44,708 bases of DNA. It comes from Escherichia phage Ayreon. The position numbers were made by a program, and so were the translations under genes. The notes below the pieces were generated by a model. That model had not been told where the DNA came from. It did no database searches and worked only from the letters and a program-made list of their open reading frames with translations. The stretch lies in the sequence record MF807953. One strand, given 5' to 3'. How positions within the stretch are numbered: the first letter of the stretch is position 1; each line of letters starts with the position of its first letter. Below, piece after piece: positions 19,171-40,304 of the stretch.

Positions 19171-22100
19171 GTGAATATGGCAGTAAAGATTTCAGGTGTA
19201 CTGAAAGACGGTGCAGGTAAACCGGTACAGAACTGCACAATCCAGCTGAAAGCAAAACGTAACAGCACCACGGTGGTGGTGAACACGGTGGCATCTGAAA
19301 ATCCGGATGAAGCCGGGCGTTACAGCATGGACGTTGAGTACGGTCAGTACAGCGTTATTCTGTTGGTGGAAGGATTCCCGCCGTCACATGCCGGGACCAT
19401 CACCGTGTATGAAGATTCCCGACCCGGTACGCTGAATGATTTTCTCGGTGCCATGACGGAGGATGATGCCCGTCCGGAGGCACTGCGCCGCTTTGAACTG
19501 ATGGTGGAAGAGGTGGCGCGTAACGCGTCCGCAGTGGCGCAGAACACAGCAGCCGCGAAGAAGTCAGCCAGCGATGCCGGCACATCAGCCCGTGAGGCGG
19601 CAACCCGTGCGACTGATGCTGCAGGCTCAGCACGTGCAGCCAGCACGTCAGCCGGACAGGCCGCGTCGTCGGCTCAGTCAGCGTCTTCCAGCGCAGGAAC
19701 GGCATCAACAAAGGCCAGTGAAGCATCGAAAAGTGCTGCTGCTGCAGAGTCCTTAAAAAGCGCGGCAGCTACCAGTGCCAGTGCCGCGAAAACGTCAGAA
19801 ACGAATGCTGCAGCGTCACAAAAATCTGCAGCCACTTCTGCATCCACCGCGACCACGAAAGCGTCAGAAGCTGCCACCTCAGCCCGGGATGCGTCGGCTT
19901 CAAAAGTGGCGGCAAAATCATCAGAAACGAGCGCAGCCTCGAGCGCCGGCATTGCAGCTTCCTCGGCAACGGCAGCAGGAAATTCCGCGAAGGCCGCAAA
20001 AACGTCTGAGACGAATGCGGATAACAGCGCACAGGCGGCAGCAGACTCACAAACTGCATCGGCAAACTCCGCGACAGCAGCCAAAAAATCAGAAACCAAC
20101 GCGAAAAATAGTGAGGCAGCAGCAAAGGTCAGCGAAACCAACGCCAAAGCGTCAGAGAACAAGGCGAAAGAATATCTCGACAAGGTCGGGGGACTCGTCA
20201 GCCCGATGACGCAATACGATTGGCCCGTTGTTACTGGTAATGAGTCTTTTTACATAAAGATCGCGAAACTTTCCGATCCCGGAAGCAACAATTGCCATGT
20301 AACGCTAATGGTTACTAACGGCGGTGCCTACGGCTCCCCTTACGGAAACATTGACTTTATCGAGATCTCGGCGCGCGGTCTGCCTTCTTCGCTTACTGCT
20401 GATAATGTATCTCGTTACCTGAGTATACGTCGTTTAGGGCCAACCGGGCTAATCAATAGCATGCAAATGCGTTACGGCCTGGTTAAAGATGATGGCTTTA
20501 TTGAGGTTTGGGCCTTCCAGCGTGCATTTATCAACGGCGCAAAGGTTGCGGTACTGGCGCAGACGGCACGCACGGAATTATACATTCCAGACGGATTTGT
20601 TAAGCAAACCGCCGCGCCTTCTGGATATGTTGAAAGCCCCGTTGTAAGGATTTACGACCAGTTAAACAAGCCGACTAAAGCAGATTTGGGCCTTTCTAAT
20701 GCTATGCTTATAGGCGCTTTTGGTCTTGGCGGTAGCGGTCTTGTTTTGGATGGTAAAATGACCGATAAGGAACTACTACAAGAGCTAAGGGCGAAAGGTG
20801 GGTGTTTCTGGAGGTCAGGAAAACCAACAGGTAGCGAATCAACAATTTTCAGCCACGGTTCTGGTATATTCTCGCGGTGCGGCGATACGTGGTCAGCTAT
20901 TAATATCGATTACGAAAGCGGTAGAGTAAAGATTTACTCTAGTAACGATAATAGACTCAACAATGGTACTTTTAACATAAATGAGCTATACGGAACCAAA
21001 TACAAGCCGTCGAAATCGGATGTTGGACTTGGTAACGTAACTAACGATGCGCAGGTGAAAAAATCCGGCGACATTATGTCAGGTAATCTGTCGATCACTA
21101 AAGCAACACCTTCACTATTCCTGCGTTCAAAAAGTGGAACCGCCCATGTATGGTTCCAAAATGAGGATCAGTCGGAACGCGGCGTTATTTTTGCGCCTAC
21201 AAATACTGATACGCTTGGCGAAGTTCACATCAGGGCTAAAAACGCAAAAGGTCAATCAAGTGGTGATTTTATTGTTCGTCACGACGGGATGGTTGAAGCC
21301 CGTGATCTCACATTAGCGGGTAAAACTAAAGGCGCAAAAGCAGAATTTGCAAACACAAGCACTAGATCCGATGATACTACGGTAAGCATAAAAGGATCTC
21401 AGCATACTCCTCTGGTTTTAACGCGCAACAACACAATTAAAAATTTATCCATTGGGTTTAAGGTTGATGACGTTGACCAAAAATATCTCGGCATATACGG
21501 TGACGGTGATTTGTATTTTGGTGGTTATTCTGACCACACAAAAAACAGCAAAGTAATTACACAAGCAATACTCGATAGCGGGGTAACGGTAGGCGGCAAA
21601 ACAACATTTTCTGACCTTGCCACATTTAACGCAGGTATGTCTGGGCCTATCGAGCCGGAAGCCATTGAAGGCATGACTATCGATCTTAATGACCTTATCA
21701 TTAAGTTCACGGATAAAGGTTCAGTTAAATACTATCACTGCAAAACTGCCGGAGGCGGTTCGAATATTACCAATAAGCCTGACGGCGTAGGCGGCAACTT
21801 TTTGCTTCGTGTAGAGTCAATTCGTAAGGTTAGTGATTCAGATTATATAAACATGCAAACGCTGATTAGCGGCGACAAAGGACGCGTGCATGTTCGTTTT
21901 GTTACTAATGGTAATTGGACAGCATGGAGCGAGCATGTTGTTTCAGGATGGAATCAGGATGTGACCGTCAGGTCGTTAACCTCGACGACTCCATCAAAAT
22001 TAGGCGGCGGGCGTGTTGATGTGCTGGGGAGTACGTCAGATTACAGTAGTATGAATTGTGCTGTGCGCGGTGTTGATAGCACTGGAACCAATTCGGCGTG

Positions 22101-22935
22101 GTCAGTAGGTACATCGGAAAACACGGGAAAAATGTTGTGCCTTAAAAACCACAGAAGCAGCGCTCAAGTGCTGTTAAATGGCGATGATGGCGCGGTGCAA
22201 CTACTAAGCGGTACTGTCAACGGTGCTACAGCACAGGCGCTAACCATCAACAAAGATGAGGTTAACTCAACTGCTGATTTAGTAATTAGAAAACAGTCAG
22301 GGACTGGCAATCGTTTTGTTTTAAAGAACGCAGGTAATGCAGAACTACCGTTTAACATCAGTGTATGGGGTTCAAGTGATCGACAAAACGTTTTTGAGGT
22401 TGGAACGTCTGCTGCGTATCTGTTTTATGCGCAAAGAACGCCAGCAGGCCAGTTGTTTGATGTAAATGGCGCTATTAATTGCACAACGCTGAATCAGTCA
22501 TCAGACCGCGACCTTAAAGACGATATTCTCGTTATCAGCGACGCGACGAAAGCAATCCGCAAAATGAACGGGTACACCTACACGCTCAAGGAAAACGGCC
22601 TTCCTTATGCTGGCGTTATTGCACAGGAAGTAATGGAGGCGCTACCGGAAGCCGTAGGATCGTTTACTCGTTACGGTGAAGAATTGCAGGGTCCGACCAT
22701 TGATGGCAACGAGCTACGCGAAGAAACGCGTTACCTCAATGTTGATTATGCGGCGGTGACTGGTTTACTTGTCCAGGTCGCCCGTGAAACAGATGATCGC
22801 GTTACCGCGCTGGAAGAGGAAAACACAACGCTACGTCAAAATCTGGCAACAGCAGACACCCGGATCAGCACTCTGGAAAATCAGGTAAGCGAACTGGTTG
22901 CACTTGTCCGGCAGTTAACAGGAAGCGAACATTGA
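19171..22935 (+). CDS. stf: Side tail fibre protein, mosaic: lambda Stf-like N-terminus, Ala/Ser-rich repeats, novel distal region, C-terminal intramolecular chaperone (peptidase S74-like)
   Basis: N-terminus MAVKISGVLKDGAGKPVQNCTIQLKA... matches lambda Stf; Ala/Ser/Thr-rich KTSETNA-type repeats follow; beyond about residue 340 the sequence is different and lower in GC. The C-terminal ~150 aa carry an SDRDLK motif and a coiled-coil tail typical of auto-cleaving chaperone domains. Confidence 0.8.
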   Translation: MNMAVKISGVLKDGAGKPVQNCTIQLKAKRNSTTVVVNTVASENPDEAGRYSMDVEYGQYSVILLVEGFPPSHAGTITVYEDSRPGTLNDFLGAMTEDDARPEALRRFELMVEEVARNASAVAQNTAAAKKSASDAGTSAREAATRATDAAGSARAASTSAGQAASSAQSASSSAGTASTKASEASKSAAAAESLKSAAATSASAAKTSETNAAASQKSAATSASTATTKASEAATSARDASASKVAAKSSETSAASSAGIAASSATAAGNSAKAAKTSETNADNSAQAAADSQTASANSATAAKKSETNAKNSEAAAKVSETNAKASENKAKEYLDKVGGLVSPMTQYDWPVVTGNESFYIKIAKLSDPGSNNCHVTLMVTNGGAYGSPYGNIDFIEISARGLPSSLTADNVSRYLSIRRLGPTGLINSMQMRYGLVKDDGFIEVWAFQRAFINGAKVAVLAQTARTELYIPDGFVKQTAAPSGYVESPVVRIYDQLNKPTKADLGLSNAMLIGAFGLGGSGLVLDGKMTDKELLQELRAKGGCFWRSGKPTGSESTIFSHGSGIFSRCGDTWSAINIDYESGRVKIYSSNDNRLNNGTFNINELYGTKYKPSKSDVGLGNVTNDAQVKKSGDIMSGNLSITKATPSLFLRSKSGTAHVWFQNEDQSERGVIFAPTNTDTLGEVHIRAKNAKGQSSGDFIVRHDGMVEARDLTLAGKTKGAKAEFANTSTRSDDTTVSIKGSQHTPLVLTRNNTIKNLSIGFKVDDVDQKYLGIYGDGDLYFGGYSDHTKNSKVITQAILDSGVTVGGKTTFSDLATFNAGMSGPIEPEAIEGMTIDLNDLIIKFTDKGSVKYYHCKTAGGGSNITNKPDGVGGNFLLRVESIRKVSDSDYINMQTLISGDKGRVHVRFVTNGNWTAWSEHVVSGWNQDVTVRSLTSTTPSKLGGGRVDVLGSTSDYSSMNCAVRGVDSTGTNSAWSVGTSENTGKMLCLKNHRSSAQVLLNGDDGAVQLLSGTVNGATAQALTINKDEVNSTADLVIRKQSGTGNRFVLKNAGNAELPFNISVWGSSDRQNVFEVGTSAAYLFYAQRTPAGQLFDVNGAINCTTLNQSSDRDLKDDILVISDATKAIRKMNGYTYTLKENGLPYAGVIAQEVMEALPEAVGSFTRYGEELQGPTIDGNELREETRYLNVDYAAVTGLLVQVARETDDRVTALEEENTTLRQNLATADTRISTLENQVSELVALVRQLTGSEH

Positions 22936-22974
22936 TATCCTTCAAGCTCTGAAGGAGGCTGTTCCCGGTACGTT

Positions 22975-23118
22975 CAGACTGTTGTTGAGCTGGAGATCGC
23001 AACGGAGGAAGAAACCTCATTGCTGGAAGCCTGGAAAAAGTATCGGGTGTTGCTGAACCGTGTTGATACATCAACTGCACCTGATATTGAGTGGCCTACG
23101 AACCCTGTCAGGGAGTAA
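22975..23118 (+). pseudogene. tfa: 3' remnant of tail fibre assembly gene tfa
   Basis: In-frame translation immediately after the stf stop reads ...[45 protein letters not shown], which resembles the C-terminus of lambda-type Tfa; there is no start codon and no N-terminal part. Confidence 0.6.
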
Positions 23119-23642
23119 TCATTGGGATTATGCCGCAGCACGTCGTATGCAAGAACGTGCTGCGGTTGGATGCTATTTTTTCCCTGAAGCGGAAAACATT
23201 ACTACAGTTATGACGATGAATTACAAGGGGTTAAATGATGCCACGGCATAGCGATATTGAAATAGCCTGGCATGCTTCAATACAGTGGGAACCGAATGGC
23301 CGGAAGACCGTCACCACACAGCGGTTTGTCTAGGGACTGAGCAATGTTCACAGGTACTGGGCTATGAGAGCTGTTAATAAACTGATAAATACGGCAACAC
23401 CACTTAGGTCAGCGTAGCCGGTAAATCGAAAAGCAACTTCATCCAGGAATTTCTGTCAGTGTTGTTTGGAGATCTGATTGCCATGATGGATCAAGAGTTC
23501 TCTCTTATTGCCGGCTTGGTGTTGACTGAAAACTGGTATGATGCCGGGCGCATGTTGGCTAATCATTGGGAATACTGCCGACACTGAACCATTCGCTCTT
23601 TTGATTTGGGGCGGTGCGACATAGCATGTAGGGAGTAAATCA

Positions 23643-24146
23643 ATGACTGAATTTCTTGGAAAACTGTTCGACAGGGTTTATACGGAGAAGGATTTCGGCA
23701 TTAATGTCGCCATATTTGTCGCGGGACTTGCCGGAATGAGCTGTTATCTGATCCTTCACGACTATGTCCTGACGCTGTTCGCATTTATTATTCCATTCCC
23801 GATCGTCAAGATCATTGCCGGAGGATGGCATCAGCGTCTTCTTGCCCAGAAAGGAAAAGCTGCTTCAAGGCAGCAGTTGGCCGCACTTTATGATTCACTT
23901 ACGGACAGTGAAAAAAACGTGGTACAGCACTTTGTAGCATTCGGCGGTGCTGTGATGACATGGGGACAAATGAACCGGCTTGATGATCCGCAAACTGGTG
24001 TGGAGTCCCTGGTTCGGAAGGGATTACTGGGTACCTCCGTGTCCGTGGATGGAATGCACGAGACCTTCGAGCTGGATCTGACGCTTTTTGCCTTTGCTTA
24101 CCGTTGGCGAGCCTCTCAGAATACGGACTCTGCGGCAGAGGGTTAA
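23643..24146 (+). CDS. Small membrane protein, possible superinfection exclusion protein (SieB-like)
   Basis: 167 aa with two N-terminal hydrophobic helices (VAIFVAGLAGMSCYLIL and LTLFAFIIPFPIVKIIAGGW) and a soluble C-terminal domain; located in the accessory region between tail fibre and int; ends at a bidirectional terminator. Confidence 0.45.
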   Translation: MTEFLGKLFDRVYTEKDFGINVAIFVAGLAGMSCYLILHDYVLTLFAFIIPFPIVKIIAGGWHQRLLAQKGKAASRQQLAALYDSLTDSEKNVVQHFVAFGGAVMTWGQMNRLDDPQTGVESLVRKGLLGTSVSVDGMHETFELDLTLFAFAYRWRASQNTDSAAEG

Positions 24147-24267
24147 GGCGTACGTGAGGTATCCGGAGATGCTAAAAGCGCGGAACTCATTAATCCTCGC
24201 CCTAAGGGAAATACGTTCTTTCAGAATGGTGGTCAACTGTTCTGCCGAAAGTGTAAAAGGATGGTAA

Positions 24268-24297
24268 TAAAAAACCCGGCTTTGCCGGGTTTTTTTA
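24268..24297. terminator. Bidirectional rho-independent terminator
   Basis: Hairpin cccggc-ttt-gccggg flanked by an A-run upstream and a T7 run downstream; serves convergent genes on both strands. Confidence 0.75.
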
Positions 24298-24299
24298 CT

Positions 24300-24428
24300 T
24301 TATGCAGCTTTTCGATTCATAGCCTTTAGTTCTTGATCGATAAACGTTTGAATTTCTTTGATTTTATCAACGTTTTTGATGGCTTCTCGCAACAGCGCAA
24401 TGCGGCGTGCTTCAATTTTATTCATCAT
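24300..24428 (-). CDS. Small basic helical protein (42 aa), hypothetical
   Basis: Minus-strand ORF MMNKIEARRIALLREAIKNVDKIKEIQTFIDQELKAMNRKAA, not in the supplied ORF track; AGGAG ribosome-binding site 7 nt upstream of the ATG; its stop abuts the bidirectional terminator. Confidence 0.45.
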   Translation of the reverse strand: MMNKIEARRIALLREAIKNVDKIKEIQTFIDQELKAMNRKAA

Positions 24429-24481
24429 ATTGGCTCCTGACTTACCTAGCTAGGTAAAACTCACTTTTTAAGTTGACTAAG

Positions 24482-24844
24482 TTAAACGAATGCCATTGCT
24501 GATAAGCGGTTGGCTCCGTCTTGAATACTGTCGTTATCGCCACGCTCGATCGCTTCTGCGACTTGGCGCATTAAAAGCACTGCTTGGCGGGCATTTGCCA
24601 TAACTCTTTCATCGTCCCAAACACCGACTTGAAGCAACTTCGTAATGATATCTGCAGTGGCGTCAGAAAGATCGGCAATTTCAGCGAATGACGGGTTAAA
24701 GTCGCGTAGTTGCTCAACCGATTTTGCGTTTACATGTTTCACAAACCATGCAGAGACTTCTTGGATTTTCCAGTACAACTCTAAAGCTAAATCATTACTG
24801 TTAACATTAGCAGCACTATAAATACTAGCAACGTTTGAGTTCAT
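24482..24844 (-). CDS. Hypothetical protein (120 aa), AT-rich accessory gene
   Basis: 120-aa minus-strand ORF in visibly AT-rich DNA, directly upstream (same strand) of the 42-aa ORF; I recognise no family. Confidence 0.5.
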   Translation of the reverse strand: MNSNVASIYSAANVNSNDLALELYWKIQEVSAWFVKHVNAKSVEQLRDFNPSFAEIADLSDATADIITKLLQVGVWDDERVMANARQAVLLMRQVAEAIERGDNDSIQDGANRLSAMAFV

Positions 24845-24966
24845 TGTTTGTTCGTTTCCAGCTGGTACCCATAAATTGGGACAAATCCTAGCTTATTGGA
24901 AAATTTTTATCCACAGTATTTGGTGTTTAATGAATATGGGGCTTAAAGAACAAATTTTCAACTGCT

Positions 24967-24996
24967 TTGAGCGATTATATTGAAAGGCGGTATAAT
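24967..24996 (+). promoter_or_regulatory. Candidate sigma70 promoter (TTGAGC - 18 bp - TATAAT)
   Basis: Perfect -10 TATAAT at 24991-24996 with a -35-like TTGAGC; no CDS follows, and a 16-bp GC palindrome lies about 65 nt downstream. Confidence 0.35.
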
Positions 24997-25140
24997 TTTA
25001 TGTCAACTAGTATAGCAATAAGAAGTAAAAATTCACTTAAAGTCATAATATTTCAGTAGGGAGCCGCGGCTCCCTTGCGTATCTTTTTGTCACTTCACCG
25101 TCTGGTCGGTGTCCTGCTGAGACCTCTAACATCCTGTTTT

Positions 25141-25613
25141 TGTTTGTGTTGTACACCGCCCAATCAACAGTGTCAATAGAACAAAGATTGCTGCATGTAC
25201 AAATGTTCTTTGGCTACAAATACACCTACTGATCATGTTCTGCTATGCTCTGATACCTCCAAAATGTACAATCAGCGGCATGAATTTTTCTTTGTACATA
25301 TGATTGTACATAATCAAAGAGACAGCAATTATGACAAGCCTTTTGGCCGCAGAGGTAGCGAAAAGAAGAACCTTTGCCATTATTTCTCACCCCAATAATT
25401 AAGCCAAAATTAAAGCTCTTTTACTCTTTCAAAATCCTTTCAGTTAATTGAGGTTGAGCCATATAACTCATTTAAATACATTTAGTTATGTGGCTTCTTT
25501 AATTGAAAATTCTTTCATGTAACTTTAAATCGATCTGCTTGCTTTCATCAAAAATCTGTACATGTGCTTGTACATAATGTACAAAACAGCAGAGGTGTTT
25601 TTTTATTTGTACA
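25141..25613. promoter_or_regulatory. Array of nine TGTACA motifs upstream of int (candidate protein-binding / att arm region)
   Basis: TGTACA occurs at 25141, 25187, 25256, 25284, 25296, 25557, 25569, 25578 and 25608 within about 470 bp, including the repeated unit TTGTACATAAT, in AT-rich non-coding DNA ending at the int start. Confidence 0.5.
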
Positions 25614-25622
25614 AGGTGAGTA

Positions 25623-26840
25623 ATGGCGCTGTCTGATGCGTGGTTGCGTTCAGTCGTTGGAAAGGAACGTGATAAGGTTTTGGTTAAATCCGATCGTGAT
25701 GGTCTGTCTGTCAGAGTATCACCGAAAGGTCGCGTAGTGTTCCAATATCGTTATCAATGGGCAGGGAAAGGTGAGCGCCTTGATATCGGAACTTACCCGG
25801 CAACTGGATTAAAAGAGGCCAGAGAAGAAGTTATCCGTCTCCGTGGTGAACTCGAGTCAAACCGCAATCCACGATTAGTCAGGCAGGCTGAAAAACGAAA
25901 AGCTACTGAAGCCATGACGGTAGAGTCTGTGATCCGTGCCTGGTATGAAGCATATTGTGTAAAAAATAAAAAAGGTTCTGAACAGATACTCCGCTCGTTT
26001 GAGCTGCACCTGTTCTCTAAAATCGGGAATATCCCTCACGATGCAGCTACATTGCATGATTGGTTAGAAGTCCTGGAGCCTCTTAGCACTAAGACTCCAG
26101 CAATAGCAGACCGATTGCTAATTAACGCAAAGCAGGCCCATGTCTGGGCGTATAAGAGAAAGCTCATTGAAACTCGCCCACTGTCGGATATCACGGGTAA
26201 AGATATGGATATCCGTAAAGGTCAGAAGAAACGGTTTCTGACACATGATGAAATTAAAATCCTTTATGCTGCGATCGATGGTTCTCGAATGGTTCCTAAA
26301 TACCGGGCCTTCATTAAACTATTGCTGCATTTTGGCTGCCGTAGTTCAGAGCTAATTACCGCCAGGGTGGACGATTTTGATTTCATTAATAAAGTATGGA
26401 CTGTACCACCAGAACGACATAAGACTGGGGAGATAACAGGCGAACCGCTAAAGCGGCCCATTATTGAACCGGTTGAAGAGCTTATAAAGTACGCTATTTC
26501 TATGAACAATGGTTCCGATATGCTTTTTACTAAGGAAGGAAGCAGGGAACCCGTTGGTCGGACATCATTGCAGTCGCTGCCTTACAATTTAATGCAGTAC
26601 GCATGGCGGCGTTTGGGGTATCAATTCCCTCATTGGTCTCTTCATGATTTGAGGCGAACAGCACGAACAAACTTTTCTGATCTTACTGCGCCTCATATTG
26701 CAGAAATAATGCTAGGTCATAAACTGCCAGGGGTATGGCAGGTTTATGACAAGAGCGATTATTTAGATGAACAGCGTAAAGCTTACCAGGCATGGTGGGA
26801 GAGAGTTGAATCGATAGTTACTTGTACTTGTTCAGACTAG
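25623..26840 (+). CDS. int: Tyrosine integrase (P4-type, with N-terminal arm-binding domain)
   Basis: 405 aa; N-terminal region typical of the P4-like integrase arm-binding domain (LSDAWLRS..GLSVRVSPKG..FQYRY); catalytic-domain features RSSEL, HDLRRTART and terminal Tyr region VYDKSDY. Confidence 0.9.
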   Translation: MALSDAWLRSVVGKERDKVLVKSDRDGLSVRVSPKGRVVFQYRYQWAGKGERLDIGTYPATGLKEAREEVIRLRGELESNRNPRLVRQAEKRKATEAMTVESVIRAWYEAYCVKNKKGSEQILRSFELHLFSKIGNIPHDAATLHDWLEVLEPLSTKTPAIADRLLINAKQAHVWAYKRKLIETRPLSDITGKDMDIRKGQKKRFLTHDEIKILYAAIDGSRMVPKYRAFIKLLLHFGCRSSELITARVDDFDFINKVWTVPPERHKTGEITGEPLKRPIIEPVEELIKYAISMNNGSDMLFTKEGSREPVGRTSLQSLPYNLMQYAWRRLGYQFPHWSLHDLRRTARTNFSDLTAPHIAEIMLGHKLPGVWQVYDKSDYLDEQRKAYQAWWERVESIVTCTCSD

Positions 26841-26973
26841 AACTGACATTTTGCATAGGCAGAACGCAATTATGCATATTGCGGTATAATCCCCTTCTTA
26901 AAACTGTAAGAACTGCTTGCTAATCCTTGCAGTTTTTGATTATAACATTTTTATTTGTTTATTAGGATTTTTG

Positions 26974-29106
26974 ATGGAACTGTTACAGGAACACGGGGCG
27001 ATACTTAAAGTTGTAATCATGCCTACTACTGGGGAACAAACCATAATCCAAGGTTTCGATACTGGCCTCCTCAACCCAGAGATATCCAACATTCTTTTTT
27101 TATTGGCCAAAACACCAAAAGAAATTAGTGAGATTTTTGTCAATGAAAATGATAACTTTCAGCCTACTCTAAGCGGGCTAAATCCTATTTTTTTAATATC
27201 TAAAGAAAATCTTGAAAAAATACCAGATATTTATCAAACGCCATTTTGCTTAATTTTTTGTGCTAAAGAAGATTTTTCGTATTTTTGTGCTTTAAAAAAA
27301 CATTTTGCTATACCACCTATAATTTGTTGCAATTCTAAACGCGCTGATCTACCACTTAATAAGATTAATAGTATATACTCATTTGATAAGGTGCTCTTCT
27401 CTCGGTTGAAATTCATTGAGGATAAAATAAGAAAAAATCACAGTGAAAAGAAAATATCAACGAAGTTGAAGCGAAGAGGGGCTTTATTTAATAAATCACC
27501 TTGGAGATCGACGCTTAACAATTCAACACTACCCAATGAGTTGTTAATTGAATCACTTGGCTATATGCTATCTCCACCAAAAAGAATTAAAGATGGTAGT
27601 AGCAAAAGAGAGTTTATAGAAATAATACTTCATAGCGTTGATGCATACACCGAATGTTTAAAGGAATTAGATATACCACTTCCAACGGAAGTCTTACTTT
27701 TTGCTCCGGGTATGCACTCTTTTTTATATGATAAAAATAATGACTTTTATGAGTTAATAACGGAAAATTTATCCACAATTGAGAAAAAATTCCTTATTGA
27801 TGGAGTGTTGAGGAATCCAGGCTATTCTGGAATTAGACTTGATATAAATTCAGATAGAAAAGAACTTTTTAAAAGTCCTGCTTTCCGTTACCTCACCTCA
27901 CTAAGACGAGCTGAAATGCGATTAACAACAGCTGCGATTACTTTATTTAGCATAAATAAAAAAATCCCAGCAATAAGATTGCCAAATGCAATAAATCATT
28001 ACTCCAATTATTTGAAAAATCTTGAAGATCTTGCAACTTCTTCTGGGATAAATAGTGAAGCATTCATCACTAAATCTAAAGCATTCAATACTGTTATTCG
28101 AAGAGCCCTTGGTTGCAAGTTGAGAACATATATAAGTAAAAACTATAGCGATTTGTCCTTTGTTTGTGATGTACCATTGGATTGGATTAGGTTTAATAAC
28201 ATACCTATAATGTTCAGTCATGAGATATCAAGAATAAATGCTACGCCTGGTAACGTTCTTCTACAGAGCGCCTCTGCTTTTCCGCGCGTTTTAGTAAAAG
28301 CATCTGAGTTGAGAAAGGTTTTAGTTATACGTTCTTTTGAGCCTGATGATCACTTAAAGTTCATATTAGAGAACGCAATTGAGATATTTAAAAAACAGAT
28401 GCCAGATCTTGATTGCGAGATTATTGATGTTAGATCGAAAGCTGAGTTTATTGATGCTCTAAATCAATATCAAGGTCATATTCTTGTTATGGATTGTCAT
28501 GGAAACCATGATGGCAATGGGAGTCATGGATGGTTAATAATAGGTGAGGATAAAGTGGACACTTGGAGTTTGAGAAAAATAGCAAGAATTCCTCCTATCG
28601 TAATTCTGAGTGCATGTTTAACATCTGCCCTAAGTGGTTCTCATGCCTCTGTTGCTAATGGCTTCGTTATAAGTGGTGCATTAAGTGTCATCGGAACATT
28701 ACTGCCTGTAAATGCGATAGACTCTGCTGTTTTTGTAAGTCGGTTGATCTACCGGTTTTACGAGTTTCCTTCGACGCTATCTACAAATTTTACACATGTT
28801 AATGTAAGGCTTTTTCTTTCTGTTTTTCTTAGGATGTCCTATGCAAGCGATTTAATAAGAGGATTTTTATCTGAAGATTTGATACCGAATAATTCATGGA
28901 AGAAAGATGCAGTTGATATTAACATGTATATAAACATGCTTCACCATGATTGGTATGATTATGTAATTAACAAATTGACGATGTTAACGGGGCTCACGAA
29001 AAAAGATGTACTTGATTTTATCGATAGAAAATTATTCATAACCGAAACTATGTGCTATAGCCAAATTGGATTTCCAGATGCAATCACAATTAGTCTTAAA
29101 GATTGA
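26974..29106 (+). CDS. Large cargo protein with C-terminal CHAT/caspase-like protease domain
   Basis: 711 aa from MELLQEHG. Strikingly low GC with Asn/Lys/Ile-rich composition. The C-terminal region has a caspase-fold His/Cys dyad signature: strand plus HG in ILVMDCHGNHDG and strand plus Cys in PIVILSACLTS, followed by GFVISGALSVIGTLLPVNAIDSAVFVSRLIYRFY, typical of CHAT domains. The N-terminal ~500 aa have no features I recognise. Confidence 0.65.
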   Translation: MELLQEHGAILKVVIMPTTGEQTIIQGFDTGLLNPEISNILFLLAKTPKEISEIFVNENDNFQPTLSGLNPIFLISKENLEKIPDIYQTPFCLIFCAKEDFSYFCALKKHFAIPPIICCNSKRADLPLNKINSIYSFDKVLFSRLKFIEDKIRKNHSEKKISTKLKRRGALFNKSPWRSTLNNSTLPNELLIESLGYMLSPPKRIKDGSSKREFIEIILHSVDAYTECLKELDIPLPTEVLLFAPGMHSFLYDKNNDFYELITENLSTIEKKFLIDGVLRNPGYSGIRLDINSDRKELFKSPAFRYLTSLRRAEMRLTTAAITLFSINKKIPAIRLPNAINHYSNYLKNLEDLATSSGINSEAFITKSKAFNTVIRRALGCKLRTYISKNYSDLSFVCDVPLDWIRFNNIPIMFSHEISRINATPGNVLLQSASAFPRVLVKASELRKVLVIRSFEPDDHLKFILENAIEIFKKQMPDLDCEIIDVRSKAEFIDALNQYQGHILVMDCHGNHDGNGSHGWLIIGEDKVDTWSLRKIARIPPIVILSACLTSALSGSHASVANGFVISGALSVIGTLLPVNAIDSAVFVSRLIYRFYEFPSTLSTNFTHVNVRLFLSVFLRMSYASDLIRGFLSEDLIPNNSWKKDAVDINMYINMLHHDWYDYVINKLTMLTGLTKKDVLDFIDRKLFITETMCYSQIGFPDAITISLKD

Positions 29107-29137
29107 CAACTGTATGTAATAAATATGGCATACTTCC

Positions 29138-29178
29138 GGCACAGAGCGAATATAACAGATCAGGTTTAGCTCTGTGCC
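29138..29178. terminator. Inverted repeat/hairpin between convergent CHAT gene and xis
   Basis: Perfect 10-bp inverted repeat ggcacagagc ... gctctgtgcc with a 21-nt loop; no strong T-run. Confidence 0.35.
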
Positions 29179-29213
29179 ATAGGTGTACCAACTCTCATCT
29201 GAGCTAATGCTCG

Positions 29214-29408
29214 TTACTCAATAACTCCCGCAAATTTGTAAATCTTGCGTGATGCCCATTTATTTGGGCATGATTTAATATCAGGATCTGGAAAGTCTGG
29301 CCTGTATTTCTGGCCAGTTCTCCTGTTTACGCTGTTCCAGCGAAGAACTGTCGATACTGATACTCCACAGAAGTTGGCGACTTGTTTAGTTGTCATTAAG
29401 TTGTTCAT
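29214..29408 (-). CDS. xis: Excisionase / AlpA-like DNA-binding protein
   Basis: 64 aa with an HTH-like N-terminus (TTKQVANFCGVSVSTVLRW) and a basic C-terminus; located at the distal end of the leftward early operon near int. Confidence 0.7.
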   Translation of the reverse strand: MNNLMTTKQVANFCGVSVSTVLRWNSVNRRTGQKYRPDFPDPDIKSCPNKWASRKIYKFAGVIE

Positions 29409-30028
29409 TACTTTACCTCCTGCGGCGGCTCCGGTAGCGGCATCCAGTGGGTTACTTTCGATGCCGGTTCTTCCACATCGTCAGTAACTGCCCACCATTT
29501 GTTTCTCGACCAATCGTAATACCCTTCGAAGGTATCGCACTCAGTCCAGCCGTAAGACTTCCCCCAACACCAAACATACTGTTTATCGTTCGGCATTCGC
29601 TCACTACAGCTTATCCAACCATCCGGAGTTACCGGAGAGTTGCCCGACAGCTCGTTCAACTTGTAAGTCTGGCTTACAGGTTTGGCACCATGAAGCATGG
29701 CGGCGCGGCAGGCGTTCCAGCCTTCATCAAAGCCGACTATGCCATTATTTAAAGACGGAAGAGCATCCGGCACCACCGACACTGGCTGAGCCATATATAG
29801 CGGCTGAACATACCAGCCCTTTGATAACCAACTGTCAGCAATGTTTTTGCTCCTGGTTATTGCCGGAATACCTAAGCCATTGTCTGAATGAAGCCACGCC
29901 ACCGGCTCTGCTTCCAGTGATGCCAGAGCAATTTCATAAGCAAGGCGCTCAACATTGTCTCGCACGTCTAGGCTGCCGATTCGTTCTTTGATTTCTTTAA
30001 TCTGTTCCTTATCGGTGTAAGTGGTCAT
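29408..30028 (-). CDS. Hypothetical early protein (Trp-rich C-terminal domain, DUF551-like)
   Basis: 206 aa; Trp-rich C-terminal region ending HWMPLPEPP; overlaps neighbours in an operon arrangement. Confidence 0.5.
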   Translation of the reverse strand: MTTYTDKEQIKEIKERIGSLDVRDNVERLAYEIALASLEAEPVAWLHSDNGLGIPAITRSKNIADSWLSKGWYVQPLYMAQPVSVVPDALPSLNNGIVGFDEGWNACRAAMLHGAKPVSQTYKLNELSGNSPVTPDGWISCSERMPNDKQYVWCWGKSYGWTECDTFEGYYDWSRNKWWAVTDDVEEPASKVTHWMPLPEPPQEVK

Positions 30029-30390
30029 TATGCTCCAGCCTCCGGTGCTTTTGGCATTACTGCCCAGTGAGTGATATTAATATTTTCAAGGTCCCCGATC
30101 TGAAATGTCCACTGCCATTCTCCGGTTTCTTTTTGTCCCCAGGTGTACCAGAGAGAACGCCAGCCAATCAGCCAGCCTTCTCCGTTAGCATCAAATAACA
30201 GAACACTTTCATTTGCTGGTGGCAGTTCAACTGATACTGGTATTACTTTGTTTTCCTGTGCTGCACATTTAGCTTCAAGCGCATCGAATTTACGCTCCAG
30301 GTATTTAGCATCCGTTTCATTCACTTTCAGGTCTCGTGGTACACATCTCCCGTGAAGAAACCCTTCCATTTCGAAAACATTCATGCGCAT
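30028..30390 (-). CDS. Hypothetical early protein
   Basis: 120 aa; Trp-rich with C-terminal HWAVMP; overlaps adjacent genes. Confidence 0.5.
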   Translation of the reverse strand: MRMNVFEMEGFLHGRCVPRDLKVNETDAKYLERKFDALEAKCAAQENKVIPVSVELPPANESVLLFDANGEGWLIGWRSLWYTWGQKETGEWQWTFQIGDLENINITHWAVMPKAPEAGA

Positions 30391-30917
30391 TTGCGTAACT
30401 CCGATAACTCGTTAAAACGTTCCATAAACATCCCGTAGGCATGGCCCGGAGCCAGTGGAATAACTTTGAACATCTCTGTTGCCGGGATACCTTCCAGTAC
30501 TGGCCAGAAAGAGCCATCATCAAGCCCGAGGTCGCGGCGTTCAGTTGCCAGCATGATGAGATCGGCATATTTCACAGGCGTGCTCATAACCGGGGGTAAC
30601 CCGAATTTCTCACGGATTACGGCGTCTATTTTTTCTTCCATCCGTTTATAGTCAGGAAGAAGGCGTTTCAGTGGCGCGGGGATGTCCTGACAATACGCTT
30701 CTGTTGCATCATGCATTAACGCTTCAAAAGCAAACTCCTCCGGAACCAGTTTGCTGCAAAGCACCGCATGTTGGGCGACGCTGTAGAAGTGTGAAAGATG
30801 ACCGGCAAAGCGACAGATATTTGAAAGGGAAACTGCGATATCGTTAATCACGATGTCGTCTTTATTTATCCTGTCATAATAAAAATGCTTCCCGGAAAAA
30901 GTTTTAATAAATGACAT
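30381..30917 (-). CDS. HD-domain phosphohydrolase (YfbR/YfdR-like 5'-deoxynucleotidase)
   Basis: Start MSFIKT with a GGAG ribosome-binding site 6 nt upstream; HD motifs SVAQHAV (His) and ALMHDATEAY (His-Asp), in the order seen in the YfbR family. Confidence 0.7.
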   Translation of the reverse strand: MSFIKTFSGKHFYYDRINKDDIVINDIAVSLSNICRFAGHLSHFYSVAQHAVLCSKLVPEEFAFEALMHDATEAYCQDIPAPLKRLLPDYKRMEEKIDAVIREKFGLPPVMSTPVKYADLIMLATERRDLGLDDGSFWPVLEGIPATEMFKVIPLAPGHAYGMFMERFNELSELRKCA

Positions 30918-31045
30918 TTTGTTCTCCACTTTATATGCGCTGCACCGCGCTGAATTTTGGTTAAAGAAAACCCTCGCCATCAGGCGATTATTGAGTTAAT
31001 TACGTTTCCATAAATGCCCCCGCAGGGGCATTTGCAGTAATGAAA

Positions 31046-31870
31046 TCAGGCGGTGAAAGTACCAATAAAGGTTTCTACTTTGCTGTCTTTGAATTTTTCA
31101 ACAAGCAGATCACGAAATTCGTTAGCCATTTCTTCCTGCACTGCTTCCAGCTGAATAATGCGCAGAACCAGTACAGGGCGATCACCAGTGATAATGCTGA
31201 GGCGTAATTTAAACGGACGTTCTTTCAGGCCTTCAAACGGAACGCATTTAAACTCAAATGCTACTGGCATAATGTCTTTGGTTTTCGCTTCGACAGACTC
31301 CATCAGAGAGCGTTTGCCGCTGAAGTCATTGTCTTCAAAATCAGCGGTCTGGTTTGCTTCAATCGTGATTTTACGGACCGCCGCAGCCGCTTTTGTTGCC
31401 TGAATGGCGTCACCATTAGCATCAAAGCCCACAAGGTAGTCGGCCCAGTCTTCAATCCATTCTGCCAGTGACTTCTGGGAGTTACGCTCGCCGTTAACAG
31501 ACAACAGGGCAGAGAACGGTGCTGTCTTTTTCAGTTTGAGAGTGGCGGTGTTATCTGCGTGACCTGGTTCATCAATAGTACCCAGGTTAAGCACACTGAC
31601 GGCTCGCATATTATCAGCATCGATAAAGCAGCGGGTGCCTTCATCTGCAAGATCTTTAGAATAACGGGTAAAGTCATCGATGCTGGCAGTGGAAAGCGCA
31701 CCACGGAAACGGAAGCGATTTAAATTAAATTTTTCCAGATCATGAATGCGGAAATTCTCAGGCAATGCCACAGCATCGGCACCAATCTTACTGATAATTT
31801 CATTAACACCCTGAGCAGAAATAAGGGCATGGATTTGATTAATTGCGGTTGCGTCTAAGTTCTGAGACAT
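31046..31870 (-). CDS. Hypothetical early protein (YfdQ-like, 274 aa)
   Basis: 274-aa ORF with a GAGGA ribosome-binding site; size and neighbourhood resemble the E. coli CPS-53 yfdPQRS-type cluster (from memory). Confidence 0.5.
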
Positions 31871-31935
31871 AATAAGTCCTCACTATATAAAGATATTCAG
31901 TGATGAGATAAATAATCAGTTTATTAAAAACGATA

Positions 31936-32298
31936 TTAACGACCTGCTGCGCGGAGTTTTCCGTCAGGTTCACCGGCAAGAGTCAGTAATTGTCCCTGGT
32001 CTTCCTGCAGAATAGTCAGGCGACCACCGCGATTGACATACATCGGCGTTTCGGTGGTGTCTTCTTCGGAAATTTTCCCGCGGTTAGTCGGGCGAACATA
32101 TGAGAGTTTGTGTTTGATTTTTACACGGTTCTCATCAAACGGTTCGATTTCCAGGTTGAGCGAGACCTTACCTTTGGTTTTCGTGTTCATCACACCGGAA
32201 GCGACTTCACTGAGAACAGCGCCGATTTTGGTTTCAAATACGCCGCCGTCCAGCTCCCCGATAAATGCCTGCACATCAGTACTGCGTTCGCTAGCCAT
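31936..32298 (-). CDS. Hypothetical early protein (first gene of leftward operon)
   Basis: Start MASERS chosen because of a strong GAGGAG ribosome-binding site 6 nt upstream; the six-frame ORF extends further upstream without one. Confidence 0.55.
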   Translation of the reverse strand: MASERSTDVQAFIGELDGGVFETKIGAVLSEVASGVMNTKTKGKVSLNLEIEPFDENRVKIKHKLSYVRPTNRGKISEEDTTETPMYVNRGGRLTILQEDQGQLLTLAGEPDGKLRAAGR

Positions 32299-32345
32299 TT
32301 TGCTGCTCCTCATCATATCGACCCTGCAAGGTCGGTTGGTTTCTC

Positions 32346-32435
32346 CACAAAACAGAGAAGAACACCTGCGGTGGCAGCCGCCCGGATGGATTGGGTTATG
32401 AGCCCGTCGTCCGGTGATGCCCTTCTCTGTTTTGT
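32346..32435 (-). other. Structured leader element (14-bp perfect inverted repeats flanking about 61 nt)
   Basis: acaaaacagagaag at 32347-32360 and its exact reverse complement cttctctgttttgt at 32422-32435, immediately upstream of the first leftward gene's ribosome-binding site. Confidence 0.4.
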
Positions 32436-32898
32436 AAAAAGAGCGGTACCAGCCGGAAGCAAGTGTACAAACTGGTACCGCCAAAGCAGTGGCTGTTGTG
32501 GTGGGGTTGTCACTCAGGCGTATGGTCAACCTGACAATCCGGTGTCCTCAACGGGGAAAGAGTAACCCCGCCATACTTACCGCCGCGCCATTTCGCGGAT
32601 TACCACAACGCTGAGAGCACTTAGCCAGTTACGGCACCACACTTTGTCGCGGTTCCATAAATGCCCTCATCGTTGCACCCTGGTCTCTTCCCAGGCGTCA
32701 AACCGGATCGCCACGCTGGTTAGGCGTCTTATCAGCATCATCATTGACTTGCACATTCCGGCTACCTGGTTTGTTTGCCCGAGCAAGGAGTGGATTGTCC
32801 CCTTTAACGTCCCCAGACCGCTAACGACGCATGTGCCATACGCCGTGTTACAACCAAATTTAGTTTAATCTTGCCTGTGTTATGTTTCTTTTAGATAC

Positions 32899-32926
32899 AT
32901 TATGTATCTCAAGGGTACATTGTCAA
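32899..32926 (-). promoter_or_regulatory. Candidate pL-like early leftward promoter with overlapping palindromic operator
   Basis: Minus strand reads TTGACA - 16 bp - CATAAT directly downstream of the cI terminator; the 17-bp palindrome agatacattatgtatct (32893-32909) overlaps the -10. Confidence 0.5.
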
Positions 32927-32929
32927 GTA

Positions 32930-32953
32930 TAAAAAAACCTGCCGAAGCAGGTT
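32930..32953 (-). terminator. Rho-independent terminator after cI
   Basis: Minus strand hairpin acctgc-ttcg-gcaggt followed by a U7 run, 12 nt after the cI stop. Confidence 0.7.
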
Positions 32954-32964
32954 ATAAATATTGA

Positions 32965-33639
32965 TTAGGCCTTTATTTTGTATCTTCTTGGTTTTCCCGA
33001 GAAAATCACTGTACCAATTATAGAGCAATTACCGTTAATCTTAATGTAAGGCTCAGGCCAGTTTGGGTTTAATGCTTTGAGATAACGCTGTGTTCCATCT
33101 TCTATCAATCGCTTGAAGGTGGTTTCGCCTGTATCGTGCATCAATGCAATAACGTCGTCACCGTGGCAGGCAGGGACTTCGGGATCAACAAAAATCATGT
33201 CTCCAGGGCGGTACTCATCAATCATTGAATCACCAATCACCCGCAAGATATAAGTCATTTCGCCACAGGGTACAGGGCAGGGGTAAGTTTCTGCTGTGCT
33301 CAAATCAACCTCAGAATAGCCAACTTCTTTCCATGCTCCGGCCTGTACCCATGATATGACAGGGACTAACGTTATTTGTTTGTTAGTGATTGAAACATCA
33401 GGTTTTTTTGTGATGTTCGTGGTCTGGTGTTCTTGATCAAGCCATCCGACAGGCAGGTCGAAACATTTTTCGATGTGCCGCGCCATGCTGTCACCGATAT
33501 TTTTAGTAGCACCATCTCCCATAAACCTGCTGGTCTGGGTTGGCTCGCGATCAATCATGGTGGCAAAGGAAGAATTCCCGCCAACACCATCTCTCAGTTT
33601 TCTGGCGTTAGACCGCCGGATGTCATGGATTGTTTTCAT
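32965..33639 (-). CDS. cI: CI-like repressor (HTH plus S24 LexA-type autopeptidase domain)
   Basis: 224 aa; N-terminal HTH region, C-terminal S24 features (GDSM serine motif and a downstream Lys in FKRL); divergent from the cro-like gene. Confidence 0.85.
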   Translation of the reverse strand: MKTIHDIRRSNARKLRDGVGGNSSFATMIDREPTQTSRFMGDGATKNIGDSMARHIEKCFDLPVGWLDQEHQTTNITKKPDVSITNKQITLVPVISWVQAGAWKEVGYSEVDLSTAETYPCPVPCGEMTYILRVIGDSMIDEYRPGDMIFVDPEVPACHGDDVIALMHDTGETTFKRLIEDGTQRYLKALNPNWPEPYIKINGNCSIIGTVIFSGKPRRYKIKA

Positions 33640-33656
33640 AACGAAATTAAAACCTT

Positions 33657-33673
33657 TGTACCGATAAGGTACA
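33657..33673. promoter_or_regulatory. Candidate operator palindrome in cI-cro intergenic region
   Basis: tgtacc-gataa-ggtaca palindrome just upstream of the candidate pR -35. Confidence 0.4.
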
Positions 33674-33679
33674 AGTATC

Positions 33680-33707
33680 TTGAAGGTTCATTTCAATCAT
33701 GTAATAT
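33680..33707 (+). promoter_or_regulatory. Candidate pR early rightward promoter
   Basis: TTGAAG - 16 bp - TAATAT, about 20 nt upstream of the cro-like ribosome-binding site. Confidence 0.5.
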
Positions 33708-33729
33708 GTATATCGGAGGTACATATTGT

Positions 33730-33930
33730 ATGAAAGCGTATTGGGACTCTTTAACCAAAGAACAGCAGGGCGAGTTGGCCGGAAAAGTTGGCTCAACACC
33801 TGGCTACTTACGGCTGGTTTTCAATGGTTATAAAAAAGCCAGTTTTGTGCTGGCGAAAAAACTTGAGCAATGCACGTCAGGTGCAATTACGAAATCTGAC
33901 TTAAGACCGGATATCTATCCGAAAGATTAA
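33730..33930 (+). CDS. cro: Cro-like small HTH regulator
   Basis: 66 aa from MKAYWD with a GGAGG ribosome-binding site; HTH-like GKVGSTPGYLRLVFNG; divergent from cI. The longer six-frame ORF from 33427 would overlap cI. Confidence 0.7.
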   Translation: MKAYWDSLTKEQQGELAGKVGSTPGYLRLVFNGYKKASFVLAKKLEQCTSGAITKSDLRPDIYPKD

Positions 33931-33961
33931 CAGAACACCTTCAATTTTTAACCACAGAACG

Positions 33962-34525
33962 ATGAGGCTAACCGTGGGTAAGTATCACTGGAAAGTAGAA
34001 AAACAGCCTGAGTGGTACGTGAAAGCTGTCAGAAAAACTATCGCAGCGTTGCCGGGTGGTTACGCTGAAGCAGCTGACTGGCTGGATGTAACAGAGAACG
34101 CATTATTTAACCGCCTTCGTGCCGATGGCGATCAGATTTTCCCGCTGGGATGGGCAATGGTTTTACAGCGCGCGGCTGGCACTCACTACATTGCGGATGC
34201 TGTCGCACAGTCTGCTGGTGGGGTGTTCGTATCGCTTCCTGAAATTGAGGAAGTAGAGAACGCCGATATAAACCAGCGCCTGCTGGAAGTCATCGAACAG
34301 ATCGGGAATTACTCAAAGCAGATTCGTTCGGCAATCGAAGATGGGGTCGTGGAGCCACACGAGCAGACAGCAATTAATGATGAGTTGTATCTGTCAATTT
34401 CGAAGCTCCAGGAGCATGCAGCACTGGTCTACAAAATCTTTTGCGCTCCAGAAAAGAGTGACGCCCGCGAGTGTGCAGCTCCGGGCGTCGTGGCGTTTTG
34501 TGTCTGTGGAGAAACTAACGCATGA
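33962..34525 (+). CDS. Early regulatory protein (YdaT/CII-like)
   Basis: 187-aa ORF immediately after cro in the CII position; similarity to the YdaT family is from memory. Confidence 0.45.
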   Translation: MRLTVGKYHWKVEKQPEWYVKAVRKTIAALPGGYAEAADWLDVTENALFNRLRADGDQIFPLGWAMVLQRAAGTHYIADAVAQSAGGVFVSLPEIEEVENADINQRLLEVIEQIGNYSKQIRSAIEDGVVEPHEQTAINDELYLSISKLQEHAALVYKIFCAPEKSDARECAAPGVVAFCVCGETNA

Positions 34526-35358
34526 ACAGTTTAACGGCAAATAACCGTTTGTCGCAACAGCTGGTGGTCAGCGTCGCTGAACACCTGTTGTTACGGCATG
34601 AATGCAGATTACCAAATCACCTGGCTGTAAGTAACCACAGAGAACTTTACCTGACTGTGGGGGGCGAGTTGTGCAAGAACTTAACCGCTGGTTTCGTGAC
34701 GGAAGAGGGCTTTATGTCCATGTTATTCGTTGGGAGCCAGAAACACAGCGCGTTATCTATCTTCGCAAAGACTACCCGCATGAGTGCTTTAGTCCTTTGT
34801 GGAAATTCAGGCGTGATTTTGTTGAGTGTGAAGGACCACCAGCACATTGATTCTGCCATTCCGGGACGTTACACTGTTCAGGCACCTTATAAAGCGGGTG
34901 TCGGGATTGGCGTCCTGGAATTGCATACGGCGACAATTGGCGCGTTAGCGTCTTTTTTGTTGCTACAACTCAGCTATACCCAAATTATGGTGGGCTGGGT
35001 GGGGGCACCGAAAGGTGCGCCGGTTTCCGTATGCGCCGGTTACGCCAACCCTGCTCAGTTCACCACCAGCGAAATTGGCGTTTCCGGTGGTGGAAGTTAT
35101 CCATTGCATACGGAGGCTGCCATCATGGCTACTGTCCCAGCCCTCTCTCGTCTGAATGATGAAGACTTACATAAACTCAGTTATGTAACAACTGCACTAC
35201 GTGCTCTGCGCAAGGTAACTCTTTCGGATCCGCAGGCGCATCAGGTTTTGGTAGAAACCCTTCTTAACTTGCAGGCTGAACGTATTCGTCTGGCGGATAA
35301 GGCTAATTTTCATATTCACCGTCTCCTGAATATCAGCGGAGGGCATCGTCATGCTTAA
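34522..35358 (+). CDS. Hypothetical early protein (278 aa)
   Basis: ORF overlapping the upstream stop; no Walker motifs seen. Confidence 0.5.
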   Translation: MNSLTANNRLSQQLVVSVAEHLLLRHECRLPNHLAVSNHRELYLTVGGELCKNLTAGFVTEEGFMSMLFVGSQKHSALSIFAKTTRMSALVLCGNSGVILLSVKDHQHIDSAIPGRYTVQAPYKAGVGIGVLELHTATIGALASFLLLQLSYTQIMVGWVGAPKGAPVSVCAGYANPAQFTTSEIGVSGGGSYPLHTEAAIMATVPALSRLNDEDLHKLSYVTTALRALRKVTLSDPQAHQVLVETLLNLQAERIRLADKANFHIHRLLNISGGHRHA

Positions 35359-35587
35359 TCCGTTGATCCTCAATATTTGCCGTTTGCTTCAGCGTAAAAA
35401 AACATCAATTCCTACAGTTGGGCAGTGGTACACCACACCTGCAGGGCATGTTCTACGTGTTAGCCTGGTTGACCGTGAATGCCAGAAGGTGATTTGTGAA
35501 CCGCTGGGCCGTAATTACCGCGTCAGTATGCCGCTTATAGCCTTTCGCTCCGGAAAAAACATGAAGCATCTCGGAGGTGCAGCATGA
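35351..35587 (+). CDS. Hypothetical small protein (78 aa)
   Basis: Operon-embedded ORF with overlapping start/stop junctions on both sides. Confidence 0.4.
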   Translation: MLNPLILNICRLLQRKKTSIPTVGQWYTTPAGHVLRVSLVDRECQKVICEPLGRNYRVSMPLIAFRSGKNMKHLGGAA

Positions 35588-36402
35588 GTATGGAGCTGAT
35601 GGTTAAAGCGATGAAAATTCGAGTGGGTAATCCATTGCGAAAACTGGTTCTGATCAAGCTGGCTGATAATGCCAGCGATCAGGGTGAGTGCTGGCCCAGC
35701 TACCAGCATATTGCTGACCAGTGTGAGATTAGCAAACGTTCTGTGATGAATCATATTGCGGCCCTTTGTGAGTCCGGGCTGGTAAAAAAAGTCACCCGGA
35801 AAGGTGAAAAAGGTAACTCAAGTAATATCTATCTCCTTCATCTGGATGGTGCAGGAGATTCACTAGGGGGTAGTGCAAATAATTCACTATCTGGTGCAGC
35901 AAATTCACTAGGTAGTGCAGGAGTTGCACCAGGGGGTAGTGCAGGAGATTCACCCAGAACCAGTCACTCTTTTGAACCAGTCAAAGAATCAGTCAATGAA
36001 CCAATAGCTGTTGGTGCATCAGTTGATGAGTCCGTGCGAGTTCGTTCAAACCGACCGGAATACTCTCCGGAGTTTGAGCAGGCATGGCTGGCATATCCCA
36101 AACGTGCTGGTGGCAATTCAAAATCTGCAGCCTTCAAAGCCTGGAAAGCCCGTTTGAATGAGGGGGTAAACCCCGAAACCATGCTGGAAGGTGTGAAACG
36201 CTACGCGGGCTGGGTATCTGCGATGGGTAACAGCGGCACACAATTTGTGAAACAGGCTGTCACGTTCTTTGGTCCGGATCGTCATTTCGAAGAATCCTGG
36301 GAAGTTCCTGCGGTATCTGCAGCTAGACGTGAGGACCCGTACTTCAAAGCCAGTTACGACAACGTGGACTACAGCCAGATCCCGGCAGGATTCAGGGGGT
36401 GA
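35584..36402 (+). CDS. Putative replication initiation protein (N-terminal winged-helix/HTH domain)
   Basis: 272 aa; N-terminal region (LRKLVLIKLADNASDQGECWPSYQHIADQCEISKRSVMNHIAALCESGLVKK) typical of phage replication-initiator HTH domains; C-terminal AYPKRAGGNSKSAAFKAWKAR segment. Confidence 0.55.
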   Translation: MSMELMVKAMKIRVGNPLRKLVLIKLADNASDQGECWPSYQHIADQCEISKRSVMNHIAALCESGLVKKVTRKGEKGNSSNIYLLHLDGAGDSLGGSANNSLSGAANSLGSAGVAPGGSAGDSPRTSHSFEPVKESVNEPIAVGASVDESVRVRSNRPEYSPEFEQAWLAYPKRAGGNSKSAAFKAWKARLNEGVNPETMLEGVKRYAGWVSAMGNSGTQFVKQAVTFFGPDRHFEESWEVPAVSAARREDPYFKASYDNVDYSQIPAGFRG

Positions 36403-37605: not shown

Positions 37606-37624
37606 TTAAGAGGAGAAACGAAGT

Positions 37625-38434: not shown

Positions 38435-38435
38435 G

Positions 38436-39431: not shown

Positions 39432-39444
39432 GTGGAGAACGAGC

Positions 39445-40197: not shown

Positions 40198-40228
40198 ATG
40201 GTTTTCGCCGAAGATGACGACATGATGC

Positions 40229-40257
40229 TTGCATTTTTCAAAAAATATGGATAAGAT
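40229..40257 (+). promoter_or_regulatory. Candidate late promoter pR' (Q-utilisation region)
   Basis: TTGCAT - 17 bp - TAAGAT between the Q stop and a strong terminator. Confidence 0.4.
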
Positions 40258-40304
40258 TTTCCCAACGATGGGCTTTGTATGTCTACCGTTGATAAGATTT
40301 AAGA

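Follow-up and report, generated by a model that had tools for sequence, protein, structure and literature searches.

We identify the gene between the integrase and excisionase genes of Escherichia phage Ayreon, with high confidence, as bovA of Borvo, a CHAT-protease anti-phage system that here forms a one-gene cassette flanked by int and xis in a lambdoid prophage inserted between prfC and yjjG. Borvo is already known: it was discovered, named and tested in 2022 from an almost identical allele, and the gene described here is no new kind of system. All positions refer to the window, the whole 44,708-nucleotide stretch of record MF807953 that was analysed.

The int-xis gene is bovA of the Borvo system

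26974-29106, plus strand: bovA coding sequence, the single protein of Borvo (open reading frame, PADLOC BovA, match to the verified construct)
26840-29408, plus strand: interval that corresponds to the verified 'Borvo' fragment of 2,569 nt (first 399 nt matched, end taken from the stated length)

The protein matches the PADLOC profile for BovA (PDLC03831) with an E-value of 2.1e-241 and 801.5 bits, residues 4-709 aligning with positions 3-715 of the 720 in the profile. Borvo appears as the verified system SG178, from E. coli 403116, in supplement file 11 of a preprint whose Borvo data stand in supplement files 5 and 11 (Millman et al., 10.1101/2022.05.11.491447). According to the supplement entries available to us, the verified construct comprises a 2,569-nt cloned fragment encoding a 710-aa 'CHAT protease', BovA (IMG gene 2646127138, contig Ga0100648_1005) (10.1101/2022.05.11.491447). 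Over the part of the published sequence that we could compare, window positions 26840-27238 agree with the first 399 nt of the verified fragment at 397 of 399 positions (2 mismatches), and the first 399 residues of the two proteins, both 710 aa long, are likewise identical at 397 of 399. Relative to the tested 403116 allele, the window copy carries the substitutions D85N and F104V within this stretch. The original prediction had guessed at a single-gene, prophage-encoded defence, and the agreement with an experimentally verified copy bears this out.

We searched 5,426 complete E. coli genomes by sensitive blastn. bovA is present in 32, always at 99% identity or more, and the window copy is 100% identical to those in several complete genomes. 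From these comparisons, E. coli appears to have essentially one bovA allele. Because a single allele, at least 99% identical, accounts for all the copies in the 5,426 genomes, residues 400-710 are probably the same as in the 403116 protein.

The two loci also share their flank. The verified fragment opens on the final base of the int stop codon (window 26840), and the stated fragment length of 2,569 nt equals 29408-26840+1 exactly, which places the end of the fragment at 29408, the boundary of the DUF551 gene. Its length suggests that the verified fragment covers the entire int-to-DUF551 interval and thus spans the 64-aa xis ORF on the opposite strand. The 'single gene' Borvo construct is therefore probably not free of xis, and strict single-gene sufficiency is not isolated in it. 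The xis ORF (29214-29408) is not called as a CDS by PGAP in sibling prophages, and IMG seems not to call it either. The int-xis prophage context that we document here is absent from the description of Borvo in the supplement entries available to us.

Start site, composition and expression signals

26965-26968, plus strand: AGGA Shine-Dalgarno sequence, 5 nt before the bovA ATG, read directly from the sequence
26885-26890, plus strand: perfect TATAAT -10 hexamer, 84 nt upstream of the ATG, with a poor -35, read by eye
29139-29179, no strand assigned: 10-bp perfect inverted repeat GGCACAGAGC...GCTCTGTGCC with a 21-nt loop, read by eye

The bovA ORF begins with an ATG at 26974, and its stop codon ends at 29106. 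The original prediction had these coordinates right; its length of 711 aa counted the stop codon, and the protein has 710 residues, the length used both by RefSeq, where the product is named 'CHAT domain-containing protein', and for the published BovA. An in-frame TTG at 26917 would give an alternative ORF of 729 aa, 19 residues longer. We favour the ATG because of the Shine-Dalgarno sequence at 26965-26968. The PHROG 34827 profile has 729 positions, of which BovA matches 20-729, which shows that the profile derives from the longer ORF call with the TTG start and takes in 26917-26973.

Compositionally, bovA stands apart from its surroundings. Its GC content is 0.340, compared with 0.501 for the window, 0.452 for int and 0.41 for xis, and its GC3 is 0.27. 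Asn, Lys and Ile together make up 23.8% of BovA residues, compared with roughly 15-16% in the integrase, the DUF551 protein and the tail fibre. The AT-rich, Asn/Lys/Ile-rich character reported for this gene, unlike the rest of the phage, is thus confirmed.

The TATAAT hexamer is a candidate native promoter element and lies within both the cassette described below and the verified construct. The inverted repeat sits between the convergent bovA and xis genes, straddles the right breakpoint of the cassette and is not followed by a T-run; a bidirectional terminator is one possible reading, a recombination scar another. Consensus scans for promoters and terminators returned no more sites than in shuffled sequence and reported neither the TATAAT nor the hairpin, and an Rfam search of the cassette gave no match.

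BovA has a CHAT/caspase-like fold with an invariant His/Cys dyad

26974-27453, plus strand: N-terminal alpha/beta domain of flavodoxin/receiver/MID type (residues ~1-160)
27467-28143, plus strand: middle region (residues ~165-390), with invariant R311, E314, R335 and P337
28435-28749, plus strand: CHAT match, catalytic core (residues 488-592, Pfam)
28498-28500, plus strand: His509 codon; the residue lies in motif DCHG immediately after strand 503-508 and is the predicted catalytic His
28615-28617, plus strand: Cys548 codon; the residue lies in motif LSAC, closes strand 542-549 and is the predicted catalytic Cys

A Pfam search, one of the checks proposed with the original prediction, finds the CHAT family (PF12770) above its cut-off, at 26.5 bits against a gathering threshold of 24; residues 488-592 align with positions 131-246 of the 289 in the profile. 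The original prediction had placed a His-Gly and a Cys at the ends of two strands, and this arrangement holds: H509-G510 follow strand 503-508, C548 ends strand 542-549, and both sites are invariant. The three motifs that it quoted begin at BovA residues 503, 541 and 563, and H509 and C548 are 39 residues apart. In two alignments, of 28 and 16 sequences, D507, H509, G510, S546 and C548 are invariant down to 26% identity. A sequence-profile search of the PDB aligns the Cys548 motif with the GAC motif of Csx29; this match is marginal (E 0.008) and confined to the Cys motif, and speaks to register, not to family. BovA shows the caspase-hemoglobinase fold of clan CD, and its closest fold matches are all active proteases. 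On the evidence of the structural model and the alignments, BovA is predicted to have a CHAT/caspase-like fold, with an invariant putative His509/Cys548 dyad at the canonical strand ends.

The region ahead of the CHAT core is specific to this family. Residues ~1-160 are its least conserved part, and residues ~165-390 give a confident model only when modelled together with the C-terminal part. The N-terminal 345 aa of BovA have matches in just 68 clusters among 1.84 billion representatives. Nearly all of these are proteins of ~700-770 aa in which the matching region keeps its place; of 10 examined, 9 have CHAT at ~480-600. Among the 68 clusters, we found none in which the N-terminal region is fused to another effector.

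Several better-known CHAT and clan CD systems invite comparison. Csx29, the TPR-CHAT protein of type III-E CRISPR (Craspase), is ~13% identical to BovA. Membership of BovA in that family was rejected, since it scores 14.7 bits with NCBIfam NF041237 against a cut-off of 300, has no TPR match in Pfam and has int and xis as neighbours. Unlike the Csx29 system, BovA has no detected TPR, no Cas7-11 partner and no nearby Csx30 substrate gene, and its activation is tied to phage DNA polymerase rather than to target RNA. Membership in the SAVED-CHAT group was likewise rejected, as BovA lacks a SAVED domain and its N-terminal region is family-specific; in contrast to the SAVED-CHAT systems of CBASS and type III CRISPR, there is no cyclase or Cas10 gene next to bovA. 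Separase, the eukaryotic cohesin protease, and the gingipains, secreted bacterial virulence proteases, also of clan CD, are 9-13% identical to BovA and have no functional relation to it.

bovA lies in a lambdoid prophage related to phage cdtI

25351-25392, no strand assigned: attP core, the overlap of the matches to both prophage ends in NZ_AP021946
25623-26840, plus strand: tyrosine integrase with a P4-type arm-binding domain, left anchor of the slot (Pfam)
29214-29408, minus strand: excisionase, 64 aa, right anchor of the slot (phrog_1553, E 1.9e-35; annotated excisionase in NC_009514)

The window is an excised lambdoid phage genome, whose prophage inserts between prfC and yjjG. A prophage in NZ_AP021946 has its prfC-side end matched by positions 25162-25392 and its yjjG-side end by 25351-44409. 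The P4-type integrase and convergent excisionase that had been predicted to flank the gene are both supported, the former by its domains (Phage_integrase, 1e-17; Arm-DNA-bind_3, 2e-16; Phage_int_M) and the latter by its phrog_1553 match. The closest phage record is phage cdtI, 99.4% identical over int-bovA-xis, where bovA is annotated 'hypothetical protein'. No other phage record with a BovA homologue was found by tblastn among 50,697.

The original cdtI record (AB285204.1) lists 'Valyl-tRNA synthetase' among the features under int-bovA-xis (27195-31045), and the RefSeq version has a hypothetical protein, integrase, excisionase and DUF551 in the same region. The tRNA synthetase label seems to be an early annotation error for one of these genes. 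Elsewhere in the window, 22936-25350 is a second variable cargo region, bounded by the tail-fibre gene (19171-22935) and attP, with ORFs of 167 aa (23643-24146, plus strand) and 120 aa (24482-24844, minus strand), neither of which has a Pfam match. The corresponding place is taken in phage cdtI by an nleH-like gene, cif, cdtABC and dinI, and in the NZ_AP021946 prophage by a 'TIR domain-containing anti-phage reverse transcriptase' and DinI. In the phage early region, Rfam places isrK (34882-34958, plus strand, 58.9 bits) adjoining C4 antisense RNA (34983-35070, plus strand, 80.7 bits).

The int-xis slot exchanges single genes

26871-29130, no strand assigned: variable cassette, without homology in two sibling Stx phages that share int and xis (blastn)

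The gene had been proposed to occupy a variable cargo slot, to be checked by comparing the slot across related prophages. In siblings with the same int and xis, the slot is indeed filled by other single genes. The window has its int and xis in common with Stx1a- and Stx2c-converting phages; in blastn comparisons with two of these siblings, homology stops within 26828-26870 on the left and resumes within 29131-29164 on the right. These breakpoints define the cassette as one gene with its own upstream region. Stx2c_EH0430 has a dGTPase defence gene in the same slot (PADLOC, E 6e-105). Most other Stx1a and Stx2c phage records have an AT-rich ORF of 517 aa with a hydrophobic N-terminus, annotated 'hypothetical protein' (in Stx2c_PV98-693, locus L003, at 2046-3599 on the minus strand). 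This ORF has no Pfam or PADLOC match and is a candidate uncharacterised defence gene.

Of the 5,426 E. coli genomes, 700 have this integrase type. The bovA, 517-aa and dGTPase cassettes are present in 32, 35 and 44 genomes, together ~111 of the 700 integrase carriers. In seven genomes sampled down the ranking (E. coli FAM21845, NU14, CT01, XH993, MB98, 13TMH22 and F1267), the slot is filled each time by a different single gene. Their products are an AIPR family protein, an 'anti-phage dCTP deaminase', a DUF6602 protein, a TPR protein of 646 aa and hypothetical proteins of 413, 331 and 239 aa. This variety marks the slot as a one-gene defence hotspot, and we give an even chance to the reading that, in such a hotspot, the uncharacterised occupants (the 517-aa ORF, the 413-, 331- and 239-aa hypothetical proteins, the DUF6602 protein and the 646-aa TPR protein) would be new single-gene anti-phage systems. 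The arrangement resembles the P2/P4 hotspots (Rousset et al. 2022) in having a fixed position in a temperate phage, interchangeable AT-rich defence genes and conserved phage flanks; it differs in belonging to a lambdoid prophage at prfC/yjjG, with the slot between int and xis. In a non-exhaustive search of the literature, we found no description of this slot.

BovA homologues and decay of the gene

Distant BovA homologues lie in the cargo of ICEs and in genomic islands, and the neighbours at three such loci are mutually unrelated. Together with a cassette that holds one ORF, this fits a single-gene system without a conserved partner. For E. coli ISC41, Table S22 of Millman et al. records a pair of BovA genes side by side (10.1101/2022.05.11.491447).

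In O121 STEC genomes (L009, 1501-3632; L010, 1501-4899), a 1-bp deletion splits bovA, leaving one ORF of 260 aa and another of 396 aa; the gene of the O121 strain GTVSS-020 is additionally interrupted by IS600. The split is a case of decay of a defence gene in one pathogenic lineage.

A model for Borvo and alternative explanations

Published experiments give an outline of how Borvo behaves. Borvo from 403116 protects E. coli when expressed from its own promoter. Cultures that carry it survive infection at low MOI and collapse at high MOI, the signature of abortive infection (Stokar-Avihail et al., 10.1101/2022.08.27.505566). The family-A DNA polymerase of SECphi4 is toxic when co-expressed with Borvo, mutant polymerases relieve this toxicity, and T5, SECphi4 and SECphi18 escape Borvo through missense mutations in the polymerase proofreading cleft (10.1101/2022.08.27.505566). 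Positions changed in SECphi4 escape-mutant polymerases are T13, E91 and D176. The second homologue tested by Millman et al., from Bacillus sp. 37MA, gave no protection (10.1101/2022.05.11.491447).

We propose a model in which BovA would be held inactive in uninfected lysogens. The trigger would be replication of a polymerase-encoding lytic phage, acting on BovA directly or by way of something that the polymerase produces. Like Csx29, SAVED-CHAT and DdvA, BovA might then use its His/Cys site to cleave a host protein, several of them or itself, and this cleavage would arrest growth before phage progeny form. Proteolysis would thus be the killing step of BovA, as the same analogies suggest. In the annotation of the NZ_AP021946 prophage (99.9% identical), we found no gene for a DNA polymerase; with no polymerase gene of its own and the host polymerase in use, the carrier phage should not trigger the Borvo that it carries. 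Borvo may therefore be self-compatible on this phage, its carrier lacking the polymerase trigger.

Could BovA defend the cell without cutting anything? On this alternative, the CHAT region would be a binding module or scaffold that might, for instance, sequester the phage polymerase or replisome or poison it, and the His and Cys would have a structural role. We found no catalytic-site mutant (H509A, C548A), substrate, cleavage product or structure of BovA in the literature available to us, up to mid-2026, and the Pfam CHAT score lies just over its cut-off, both of which such a reading would accommodate. It would leave unexplained, however, why the DCHG and SAC motifs stay invariant down to 26% identity, as expected of active clan CD enzymes, and why the closest folds are all active proteases; we regard it as unlikely. 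A separate concern is whether the window copy still works. The frameshifted O121 copies, one of them with IS600, and the two substitutions relative to the tested allele could point to an inactive, decaying allele, and yet the frame runs unbroken through 710 codons, no invariant family position is lost, the upstream TATAAT and Shine-Dalgarno sequence are retained and 100% identical copies exist in several complete genomes. D85N and F104V, moreover, both fall within the least conserved, N-terminal domain, so that decay of this copy seems very unlikely.

The position of bovA between int and xis might also suggest a gene that serves the prophage itself, in the switch between lysogeny and induction or in integration and excision. 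The closest record, cdtI, is a toxin- and effector-converting phage, which raises the thought of virulence cargo comparable to its cdt and cif. Against both, the same slot in siblings holds unrelated genes (the dGTPase, the anti-phage dCTP deaminase and the AIPR protein), and the occupant is therefore dispensable for phage functions. BovA homologues also occur in ICEs and islands outside any int-xis context, and a near-identical copy on a plasmid, outside any prophage, protects against phages. A service or virulence role thus strikes us as extremely improbable, and we retain the identification of the gene as the anti-phage gene bovA.

These results place the reference Borvo gene in a lambdoid prophage akin to phage cdtI and the Stx-converting phages. 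Mutagenesis directed at the mechanism of Borvo can draw on the invariant residues and domain limits mapped above, and the int-xis slot offers a cheap place to seek further single-gene defences in pathogenic E. coli.
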